4,427 bases of DNA from a virus (IMGVR_UViG_2547132269_000006), one strand, 5' to 3'. Shown: positions 2,142-4,427, counted from the stretch's first letter. Notes: generated by a model from the sequence alone, not told the origin. A program made the numbers and translations.

Positions 2142-2174
2142 TGATTCTGTTGATTGGGGAATCACAGAATATCA
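2142..2174. promoter_or_regulatory. Overlapping inverted repeats in the 89-bp gap between the CII-like and O-like genes
   Basis: ATTCTGT (2144-2150) pairs with ACAGAAT (2164-2170), and inside it TGATT (2151-2155) / AATCA (2160-2164) flank GGGG. There is no downstream T-tract, so this is more likely a protein-binding site or weak attenuator than an intrinsic terminator. Confidence 0.3.
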
Positions 2175-2210
2175 CCAGAGGATGGTTCGTCACAAGATGA
2201 TGAGGCAATT

Positions 2211-3221
2211 ATGGCCGCATTACCATACATGCAACTGTACATAGCTGATTACCTGGCTGACACCATGCATTTGTCCGCAGAGGAGCACGGTGCGTATTTG
2301 TTGCTGATGTTCAATTACTGGCAAACAGGGAAACCAATACCTAAAAACAGGCTGGCAAAAATTTCCCGTCTGACTAACGAGCGATGGGCTGATGTGGAAC
2401 CATCCTTGCGGGAGTTTTTTTGCGATAACGGCGATGAATGGGTGCATCTTCGGATTGAGGAAGATCTGGCATCAGTCAGGGAAAAATTGACCAAAAAATC
2501 AGCCGCCGGAAAAGCATCTGTTCAGGCCAGAAGAAGCAGAAAGGAAGCATATGTTCAAACAAAACAAGAGAGAGATTTAACAGGTGTTCAAACAAATGTT
2601 GGTGTTGTGTTTGAACATGACGCAAACACAAAAGCAACTAATAAAGATACAGATCTAAAAGAATTAAACCCCACACATAACGTGCGTGAACGCGAGAGTA
2701 TTCCGACCAGTGAGTCGCATGGTGCGCCGTTGCAGACAGCCGAACCTGAATACCTGGACGGCCTGAGCGAACCGATCGGGAAATTTTCGATGACTACTGT
2801 CTGGCAGCCGTCGCCGGATTTTCGACAACGGGCAGCAGTGTGGGGTATGGCTCTGCCTGAGCCGGAATTTACACCTGCTGAGCTTGCCGCATTCCGGGAT
2901 TACTGGATGGCGGAGGGGAAGGTTTTCACGCAGGTTCAGTGGGAGCAGAAATTTGCCCGCCACGTGCAGCACGTCAGGGCACAGGTAAAACCAGTCAGCA
3001 AGGGGGTAAGCCATGCAGCATCAGGTGGCACGGCATCACGGGCAGTTCAGGAAATCCGGGCAGCACGCGAACAGTGGGAACGTGAAAACGGATTTATCAG
3101 CAACGGAAACGGCCTGGAAGCTGTGGGAGCTTATGGGGGAGGTGTATTCGAACCGCTGGACTCAGAAGAACGGGGCCGCACCTTCGAAGCTCTGGATTGC
3201 CCAGATTGGTGCGATGACTGA
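2211..3221 (+). CDS. Phage replication initiator (O-like): DUF1376-type N-terminal domain plus DnaT-like C-terminal domain, 336 aa
   Basis: ATG 2211 has GAGG 5 nt upstream. The N-terminus (YMQLYIADYLADTMHLSAEEHGAYLLLMFNYW) fits the DUF1376/YdaU pattern. The C-terminal GKFSMTTVWQPSPDFRQRAAVWGMALPEPEFTPAELAAFRDYWMAEGKVFTQVQWEQKFARHVQ closely parallels the E. coli DnaT C-terminal domain as I recall it. Codon usage in the last 70 codons is good (all Leu CTG, all Glu GAA). The TTG at 2154 is an unsupported extension. Confidence 0.8.
   Translation: MAALPYMQLYIADYLADTMHLSAEEHGAYLLLMFNYWQTGKPIPKNRLAKISRLTNERWADVEPSLREFFCDNGDEWVHLRIEEDLASVREKLTKKSAAGKASVQARRSRKEAYVQTKQERDLTGVQTNVGVVFEHDANTKATNKDTDLKELNPTHNVRERESIPTSESHGAPLQTAEPEYLDGLSEPIGKFSMTTVWQPSPDFRQRAAVWGMALPEPEFTPAELAAFRDYWMAEGKVFTQVQWEQKFARHVQHVRAQVKPVSKGVSHAASGGTASRAVQEIRAAREQWERENGFISNGNGLEAVGAYGGGVFEPLDSEERGRTFEALDCPDWCDD
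2550..2635. repeat. Iteron-like repeats inside the O-like gene linker, a candidate replication origin
   Basis: TGTTCAAACAAA occurs exactly at 2552-2563 and 2585-2596, an inverted copy TGTTTGAACA lies at 2608-2617, and a related CAAACACAAAA at 2623-2633. An AT-rich stretch follows (2637-2669). The position between the two initiator domains mirrors ori-lambda inside gene O. Confidence 0.4.
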
Positions 3222-3675
3222 ACAGCAAATCCGTCTGGTCTGCCGTCAGTGCATGGACCGCTGCCGGGCGGGTGAAACGTGGCCCCCGGACCTGGCTGAG
3301 TTTGTTGCGCTGATTTCGGAGAGTGGGGCAAATCCATTTGGTCTTACGGTGGATGCCGTGATGGAAGAGTACCGGCGCTGGCGCAATGAATCCTGGCGAT
3401 ACGACGGGAGTGATAAATACCCGTGGCCACAGCCTGTGCTGTACCACATCTGCCTCGAAATGCGTACCAGAGGGATTGAGCGCCAGATGACGCAGGGTGA
3501 GTTAAAACGACTTGCGGAACGGCAACTGACGAAATGGGCAAAGCATGTTGGTAACGGGATGAGTGTTCCGCCAGTGCGACGACAACTGGAAGGGGCGAAA
3601 CACCCGCAAGGGCCAACGCCAATTGAACGGCTGAAACAGGAATACGAACGCCGGAAGGCAGCTGGTTTTCTTTGA
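3214..3675 (+). CDS. Lambda-P-like replication protein (DnaB helicase loader family), 153 aa
   Basis: The sequence resembles the C-terminal two thirds of lambda P as I recall it (PPDLAEFVA vs PSPGQFVAW; a shared YPW motif; TQGELKRLAERQL vs TDAELRRKAADEL). ATG 3214 overlaps the O-like stop (ATGACTGA), which suggests translational coupling. An upstream in-frame ATG at 3013 with a GGGGG SD exists, but that frame has poor codon usage within the overlap. Confidence 0.7.
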   Translation: MTEQQIRLVCRQCMDRCRAGETWPPDLAEFVALISESGANPFGLTVDAVMEEYRRWRNESWRYDGSDKYPWPQPVLYHICLEMRTRGIERQMTQGELKRLAERQLTKWAKHVGNGMSVPPVRRQLEGAKHPQGPTPIERLKQEYERRKAAGFL

Positions 3676-3708: not shown

Positions 3709-4227
3709 ATGGAAACCGTATTTGACGCACTGAAAGCACTGAAAAGAGCCTCTTCACAGGTAGTGGCGGCCCGCCTTGGAATCAGCCGTGAAGATGCGGT
3801 CAACGAACTGTGGAAACTGAAGCGCCGCGGTGAAGCGGATAACAAGGGGTCGATGTGGTGGCTGATTCAGGCTGGTGAAAGTGAACCGGTGTCACCGGTA
3901 CCGAAAGTGACAGCGCAAATGCTGACTGAGGCGATTGAACAACATGGCCCACAAACGGCGGATGAGCTGGCACTGATGTTCGGGATTACCTCCCGCCGGG
4001 CGAATTCATCGCTGGCCATGGCAATCAGCAAAGGGCGTCTGATTCGCGTGAATCAGGGCGGTAAATTTCGTTACTGCATACCGGGCGCTGATTTACCGGC
4101 AGAGCCGGAAGCTGCATCCGTAGCGGAAACCGATGGTAAAGCCTTTCCTCAGCCAGCAGGTGTTGCGTTACCAGTTCGGGAAGCAGAAACGCTACGGCCT
4201 TCGATATGGACATCCGATAAATGCTGA
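3709..4227 (+). CDS. Hypothetical phage protein with two tandem winged-helix-like modules, 172 aa
   Basis: GGAGG sits 8 nt upstream of ATG 3709; the TTG at 3691 in the ORF track is less likely. Two repeats of a helix-turn-helix plus wing pattern are visible ([37 protein letters not shown]...MWWL and [43 protein letters not shown]). This may correspond to a DUF1627-type protein, but I cannot confirm the family. Confidence 0.7.
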
Positions 4228-4240
4228 TGAGCGCCACGTC

Positions 4241-4354
4241 ATGATACCTAAAGAAAATGGCTGCTGGATTTATCTGGCTGATTTAGAGCACGTACTACGT
4301 GTTGCTGGTATTCGCATCAAAGGAGAGGAGCATGGAAATCAAACCAGAAGATGA
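4241..4354 (+). CDS. Possible small protein, 37 aa
   Basis: ATG 4241 lies 13 nt after the upstream stop. It is the only non-overlapping part of the 4133..4354 ORF. There is no convincing SD, and the 3' end overlaps the next start by 23 nt. Confidence 0.2.
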   Translation: MIPKENGCWIYLADLEHVLRVAGIRIKGEEHGNQTRR

Positions 4355-4427
4355 GTTAAGTAATATTGTTTTATTTCCGGTAAAAGAGGATGACCCACGT
4401 AATCAGGTTAATTTTCTTTATGAGCCA
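4332..4427 (+). CDS. Hypothetical protein, 5' partial view (gene runs off the window end)
   Basis: A strong SD (AGGAGAGGAG) lies immediately upstream of ATG 4332. The frame is open to the window end (MEIKPEDELSNIVLFPVKEDDPRNQVNFLYEP...). No family recognised. Confidence 0.45.
   Translation, partial: MEIKPEDELSNIVLFPVKEDDPRNQVNFLYEP

Follow-up and report, generated by a model that had tools for sequence, protein, structure and literature searches.

A probable replication origin inside the linker of the DUF1376-type initiator gene of a Rac-like Escherichia coli prophage

The replication initiator gene of a Rac-like Escherichia coli prophage carries, in the stretch that encodes the linker between its two protein domains, three short near-palindromic boxes followed by an A-rich, easily melted tract. 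We consider it very probable, judging from the sequence, that this segment (2552-2672 of the 4427 bp of DNA analysed, hereafter the window) is the replication origin of the prophage and thus lies within the gene for its own initiator. The boxes are conserved as DNA in homologous genes, are spaced in phase with the helix and change together with the N-terminal domain of the protein that encloses them. The arrangement itself is an expected one; its location is new for the DUF1376/YdaU family of initiators, and we found no sequence-level description of such an origin in the literature on oriJ, ydaU or DUF1376.

A copy of window positions 2150-3250 is present at 99.6% identity in E. coli E2865 and is annotated alike; at that locus RefSeq gives an initiator CDS of equal length and names the P-like gene 'replication protein P'. 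This gene region is matched in 1842 of 5426 complete E. coli genomes. The features on which we rely are collected in Table 1. The frame of the P-like gene extends without a stop from 3013 onward, and its similarity to Pfam Phage_lambda_P starts about 10 codons before the annotated ATG (3214). P may begin upstream of 3214, in which case it would overlap the 3' part of the initiator gene by as much as about 200 nt, or the open extension from 3013 may instead be fortuitous.

Table 1. Positions of genes, domains and candidate origin elements in the window
Feature	Position	Strand	Basis or remark
Window: immunity and replication region of a lambdoid, Rac-like E. coli prophage	4427 bp		Gene content
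HigB-like toxin	140-487
HigA-like HTH protein	490-849
cI-type repressor	896-1294	-
YdaS/Cro-like gene	1427-1687
YdaT/cII-like gene	1684-2121
O-like replication initiator, 336 aa (DUF1376 N-domain, linker, DnaT-like C-domain)	2211-3221	+	ORF list, Pfam
DUF1376 domain coding region (predicted winged-helix DNA-binding domain, putative box-binding module)	2223-2471	+	Pfam E 5.7e-26
Box 1, TGTTCAAACA	2552-2561	+	Extended match ATGTTCAAACAAAACA at 2551-2566
Box 2, TGTTCAAACA	2585-2594	+	33 bp from box 1
Variable spacer	2595-2607		Extra TGTT half-sites (2597, 2603)
Box 3, TGTTCAAACA on the minus strand	2608-2617	-	23 bp from box 2
A-rich, easily melted tract, candidate DNA-unwinding element	2619-2672	+	Composition, nearest-neighbour stability, likeness to the lambda tract
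Mosaic joint	2655-2663		Upstream N-module and boxes versus downstream C-module and P
DnaT C-terminal-like domain, annotated ssDNA-binding	2784-2984	+	Pfam E 3.1e-17
Lambda-P-like helicase-loader gene	3214-3675	+	Pfam Phage_lambda_P E 1e-15; overlaps the initiator stop (ATGACTGA)
DUF1627 gene	from 3709

The original prediction, made from the DNA alone, drew attention to two 12 bp direct repeats and an inverted copy between the two domains of the O-like protein. The repeats are real: the exact 12-mer TGTTCAAACAAA occurs at 2552-2563 and 2585-2596 and the inverted 10-mer TGTTTGAACA at 2608-2617, and the Pfam extents of the DUF1376 and DnaT-like domains (Table 1) confirm that all of them fall between the two. 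The core TGTTCAAACA matches perfectly at three sites and no more in the 4427 bp window, all of them inside the initiator linker at +342 to +407 of the gene, and each box is a near-palindrome of the form TGTT-N2-AACA. Half-sites (TGTT or AACA) number 12 in 2500-2640 compared to about 1.9 expected from the window average, an enrichment of roughly six-fold. Three non-overlapping copies of any 10-mer, on either strand and within 100 bp, were found in none of 2000 dinucleotide-preserving shuffles, and the same clustering of any 9-mer in four of 2000. The term iteron-like, used in the original prediction, is apt, although the boxes are shorter than those of lambda (about 10 bp compared to 18 bp) and their orientation is mixed.

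An AT-rich stretch had also been noted after the repeats, and both its composition and its nearest-neighbour stability bear this out. The most AT-rich 30-mer of the initiator gene (83% AT, A-rich on the coding strand) begins at 2639. No other 40-mer of the gene is as unstable as 2630-2669, which is also the third least stable in the window (-42.8 kcal/mol; mean -54.5, sd 4.5); the operator region at 1359-1398 is more extreme. This core contains a remnant of a (GATACA)n repeat, GATACAGAT, at 2646-2654, where one and a half GATACA units are kept, and a GATC at 2652-2655.

The protein in which these elements are embedded consists of two recognizable domains. Its N-terminal part matches DUF1376/YdaU (PF07120) with 91.1 bits against a gathering cut-off of 30.1, and its C-terminal part matches the DnaT C-terminal domain (PF17948) with 62.5 bits against a cut-off of 25, as well as solved DnaT C-terminal domains (PDB 6aep and 4ou6; E 1.2e-20 for 6aep). 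A confident AlphaFold2 model of residues 1-113 (pLDDT 89) has a helix-turn-helix and a beta wing followed by a long helix, so that the N-domain is predicted to be a winged helix, and the structural matches of this model include origin-binding proteins.

Lambdoid origins lie in the middle of gene O and consist of iterons and an AT-rich tract (PMC7466680). Two iterons with the tract suffice for unwinding according to earlier work as cited in the same paper. That the boxes described here number just three and are short weighs against the origin reading. The original prediction had seen in the repeats the logic of ori-lambda, and each expectation of that likeness that could be tested at the sequence level (placement, DNA-level conservation, N-domain specificity and predicted fold) agrees with what we found. 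In the annotated lambda record the iterons occupy +349 to +433 of O, almost the same offset as the boxes in the window, and the most AT-rich 30-mer (83% AT) stands at +445 in ori-lambda and at +429 in the O-like gene, A-rich on the coding strand in both. The two tracts are alike in character and both contain ACACAAAAG. Each element lies in mid-initiator gene, between a DNA-binding N-domain and a P-interacting C-domain and with a P-like loader gene next in order, and each sets repeated dyad-symmetric initiator sites beside an A-rich tract on their 3' side.

There are also clear differences. Lambda has four iterons of 18 bp in a single orientation (six in the version of ori-lambda carried by Stx phages), whereas the three boxes of the window measure about 10 bp and differ in orientation. 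The N-domain here is DUF1376, the C-domain is DnaT-like and the P-like protein, annotated at 153 aa, is shorter. A profile comparison of lambda O with DUF1376 detected no similarity (hhalign probability 0.1%), and the parallel is thus one of architecture rather than of demonstrated homology. By analogy, the element may work like ori-lambda even though its initiator stands outside the O family (Phage_rep_O), Pfam assigning it to DUF1376.

Homologous DUF1376 genes were collected in two ways. A tblastn search with the N-domain returned 57 phage records, six of which were retrieved, and a scan with a 4-sequence alignment, limited to one genome per species, added 53 further loci of 42-97% identity. 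Nearly all homologous loci carry two to five short boxes at about +340 to +420 of the gene, most with the palindromic core CGTT-C/G-AACG, followed by an A-rich run that is very often (GATACA)n. Boxes in the same position were seen in phages or prophages of Pseudomonas (where the box is CGTTCAACG), Moraxella, Acinetobacter, Rhizobium, Citrobacter, Enterobacter, Kluyvera, Pantoea, Serratia, Rahnella and Azotobacter, and in several MAGs. When each locus of 4-6 kb was searched for the 100 bp window richest in exact 8-mer repeats, this fell in the box zone at 17 of 39 loci compared to about one expected. The core hexamer occurs 20.6 times per kb inside the zone and 1.8 times per kb elsewhere, an 11-fold difference in density.

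The original prediction had proposed asking whether homologues conserve the repeats as DNA more strongly than they conserve the encoded linker. In some 35 homologues the box core turns up in each of the three reading frames (0, 1 and 2) and in either orientation, and this variety is seen even inside one gene. Measured from centre to centre, the boxes are 11 bp apart in 31 cases, 22-23 bp in 13 and 33 bp in two, all close to multiples of 11 bp. It is therefore the DNA and not the peptide that is conserved, and the periodicity is that of the helix and not of the codon. The same conclusion follows from Moraxella phage Mcat25, in which the annotated DUF1376 gene is short (CDS 2001-2435) and has the boxes at its 3' end; beyond them come an AT-rich intergenic stretch and a separate downstream ORF.

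These data bear directly on whether the repeats might be a by-product of a low-complexity linker, produced by duplication or slippage and devoid of function as DNA. As the original prediction pointed out, boxes 1 and 2 encode the similar peptides VQTK and VQTN, and the microsatellite-like GATACA tract, which varies in length, lies in the same linker; both fit such an explanation. However, box 3 is inverted and encodes VFEH, the spacing of 11 bp in homologues is not a multiple of three, the boxes of Mcat25 lie outside any interdomain linker, and the boxes differ with the type of N-domain. Frame, strand and spacing together largely refute a pure linker-peptide repeat, and we regard this explanation as extremely improbable.

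Some DUF1376 relatives depart from the common gene plan. In six loci (L112, L114, L116, L117, L119 and L140) the middle of the gene, at about +300 to +500, has given way to a GIY-YIG/T5orf172/MUG113-like segment (GYVYFI...IKIGYSKNPW), the coding DNA of which is rich in CCGTAG/CTACGG repeats, and in other relatives (P0047, P0065 and P0084) there are fusions to HNH domains.

Within the species, we compared 51 distinct sequences with N-domains 97-100% identical. Nucleotide diversity is 0.0215 in the boxes, compared to 0.078 in the spacers and 0.057 at third codon positions of the N-domain, and is highest (0.15) in the spacer 2595-2607. Variants inside the boxes are without exception rare alleles, the ten common polymorphisms of 2545-2640 all lying outside them, and box 2 is the best conserved of the three. 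The signal is modest (about p = 0.02 by hand calculation), and some close relatives have point changes or a 2-nt deletion in a box. Damage of this kind would be expected in decaying cryptic prophages, and would also be compatible with weak constraint.

Initiator domains have also been exchanged in nature. The window is a mosaic in this respect: positions 2204-2654, which comprise the N-module with its three boxes, match the first half of ydaU in the Rac prophage of K-12 at 95.6% identity, and 2641-3250 are 97% identical to the genes for a 'DnaT-like protein' and 'replication protein P' in O157:H7 prophages. Among 80 close relatives the N-module and its boxes are joined, after ...AATAAAGATACAGAT, to at least three different continuations, and the joint lies just 3' of the A-rich tract. 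Conversely, two O157-type prophages share the C-module of the window from AACCCCACACATAAC onward and have N-domains unrelated to DUF1376 (BLASTP E > 0.7), and at the same position in the gene their boxes are quite different. One of this pair (L142 2437-2486 and L143 2439-2504) has five copies of (T/A)GTCACGA at a spacing of 10-11 bp; the other has AAAGACACCCAAA twice and GGAACCCAAAG twice, with ACACCCAAA-type boxes at 22 bp. The two arrays are candidate origins of two further initiator types. Boxes thus stay the same with the same N-domain and change when it changes, as expected for binding sites of that domain, and the pattern parallels the classical result with hybrids of lambda, phi80 and 82.

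The continuations found after the N-module include one of the K-12 type with an insertion of about 115 aa. In this ydaU variant (L063 1450-2649; also L049, L058 and L077) the insertion directly follows the A-rich tract and has a motif ...DIVVTD...ELD..., the C-terminal half being otherwise of the K-12 type; it possibly has a nuclease-like fold.

The position of the joint raises the question of whether the conserved sequences are a recombination joint or homology patch that serves to shuffle N- and C-modules, and not an origin. The joint stands immediately 3' of the A-rich tract and is flanked by the short shared strings AATAAAGATACAGAT and AACCCCACACATAAC, and a homology patch would account for the shared A-rich or GATACA tract. 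It would not, however, account for boxes that are specific to the N-domain, have dyad symmetry and are helically phased. A joint at this point is compatible with origin function because it keeps each initiator domain with its partner, and we consider the patch explanation, taken instead of an origin, very improbable.

The K-12 counterpart may connect the boxes with a reported origin. Rac is reported to have an active origin, oriJ (PMC3945230; also Potrykus et al. 2000, as cited in another paper). Recent papers call the K-12 prophage replication-defective, which speaks against the origin reading. K-12 Rac shares the ydaU N-module and all three boxes with the window, but unlike the window has a different C-terminal half and a DnaC/IstB-like loader, YdaV. 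We found no sequence-level coordinates of oriJ in the accessible literature, and the only published 'oriJ' primers that we found, those of PMC3945230, amplify the Walker-A region of ydaV (L001 4078-4232), about 0.7 kb downstream of the boxes. This amplicon contains no repeats and no AT-rich tract; it lacks origin-like features and we treated it as a nearby copy-number probe. That the boxes are probably the sequence basis of the long-known oriJ is a prediction rather than a finding.

The primer position might instead suggest that replication starts at another place, such as within the loader gene or past it, and that the boxes are initiator or regulator sites for autoregulation, roadblock or copy control. 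Initiators often repress their own genes via inverted repeats, as do plasmid Rep proteins, and boxes 2 and 3 form an inverted pair. However, the bare ydaV amplicon does not favour an origin there, the boxes lie 340 nt inside the gene with no promoter-like site found in 2200-3000, and an unwinding-type tract always follows them. In addition, many homologues have all-direct repeats 11 bp apart, which are typical of origin arrays and not of operators. A purely regulatory role is thus unlikely, though we give it more weight than the other alternatives.

The inverted copies could also act through a hairpin in RNA or single-stranded DNA (2585-2617 or 2598-2638), with a role in attenuation, in stability or in the assembly of a primosome. 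The DNA of 2545-2645 does fold into a hairpin, but its z-score is marginal (-1.98), the box region matches no Rfam family and no plus-strand terminator-like site was found in 2200-3000. The inverted arrangement is moreover not conserved, boxes in Rahnella, Moraxella and a Methylococcaceae MAG being direct copies only, and a hairpin function is accordingly very hard to credit.

Origins within initiator or replisome-organiser genes are known elsewhere, as in oriL of SPP1 (in gene 38) and in RepA_N plasmids such as pSK41; these involve other protein families, hosts and repeat sequences. The iteron origins of plasmids (RK2, R6K, pPS10 and F) resemble the present element in having phased repeats, a winged-helix initiator and an adjacent AT-rich unwinding element. 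Their iterons, however, are 17-22 bp long, all direct, intergenic and usually accompanied by DnaA boxes. We rejected assignment to this class, as the boxes of the window are 10 bp, of mixed orientation and intragenic, with no match to a DnaA box within 200 bp. A search of PLSDB for a natural plasmid relying on the module found only prophage-like copies in very large plasmids.

We propose that an origin at this site would be used as follows. Dimers of the winged-helix DUF1376 N-domain would bind the three TGTT-N2-AACA boxes, which, with distances of 33 and 23 bp between them, face roughly the same side of the helix, and would form a complex similar to the O-some. This complex would destabilise the adjoining A-rich tract (2630-2669), and the DnaT-like C-domain together with the lambda-P-like protein would bring host DnaB onto the opened DNA. 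Initiator binding, melting and helicase loading are steps that we infer, as is any role of transcription from the upstream pR-like promoter.

The GATACA remnant led to a broader comparison. At least 120 IMG/VR contigs contain (GATACA)n of four or more units (loci L146-L264). Among the matches listed, the tract is read as Asp-Thr in 115 of 120 and lies mid-gene in an ORF of 200-450 aa in 89 of 120; most of these 89 listed tracts are directly preceded by arrays of boxes with contig-specific sequences (GTAACG, GTGACG, GAACGCA, AACCCAA and others). Most of the 89 listed ORFs have no Pfam match, and such matches as there are mostly relate to replication (DUF1376, DnaT, Phage_rep_org_N and DnaB_2; also DUF6291). 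When hexamer tracts of any kind encoding Asp-Thr were scanned for, GATACA was the type met most often; some of its hosts are GC-rich, and among GC-richer synonymous tracts the box and mid-gene context was seen at only about 7 of 75 loci, by a reading of the listing by eye. We found nothing relevant in the literature on the hexamer GATACAGATACA.

It is conceivable, and we put it forward tentatively as the less probable reading, that a box array with a (GATACA)n or A-rich tract is a portable origin cassette of many unrelated phage initiator families across bacterial phyla, in which GATACA is selected as DNA, being a shared site of unwinding or helicase landing rather than an Asp-Thr linker that is simply tolerated. 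If so, origins and the cognate sites of their initiators could be predicted from a simple sequence signature in thousands of uncultured phages, and DUF1376 and several other DUFs would gain a function.

For the Rac-type prophages themselves, carried by a large fraction of E. coli genomes, the boxes and tract offer a concrete and testable location of the origin. DUF1376/YdaU is likely, from these comparisons, to be an origin-binding initiator domain with the consensus CGTT-C/G-AACG, represented in E. coli by TGTTCAAACA, and the rule known from lambda, of an origin inside the initiator gene that travels with the domain that reads it, would extend to unrelated initiator domains. Uses may be found in annotating the replication modules of phages and prophages, in predicting incompatibility between co-resident prophages and in building minimal replicons. 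The main value is that oriJ and the function of DUF1376 become directly testable.

Further observations concern the flanks of the window. Between the divergent cI-like and cro-like genes lies an (AAATTT)n dyad array, ATTACAAAT...TTTAAATTTAAATTTGTAATT (1343-1398), in the least stable DNA of the whole window, and a second, related copy (86%) is found upstream of higB at 93-141; the two are probably two operator regions of one repressor. At the other end, the DUF1627 protein and its counterpart in E2865 agree at 160 of 161 residues, after which the sequences part; the protein of the window stops at 172 aa, that of E2865 at 241 aa. The final 238 nt of the window (about 4190-4427) match Stx-phage DNA on the opposite strand, and the picture resembles a mosaic or rearrangement joint by which the DUF1627 gene has been cut short.
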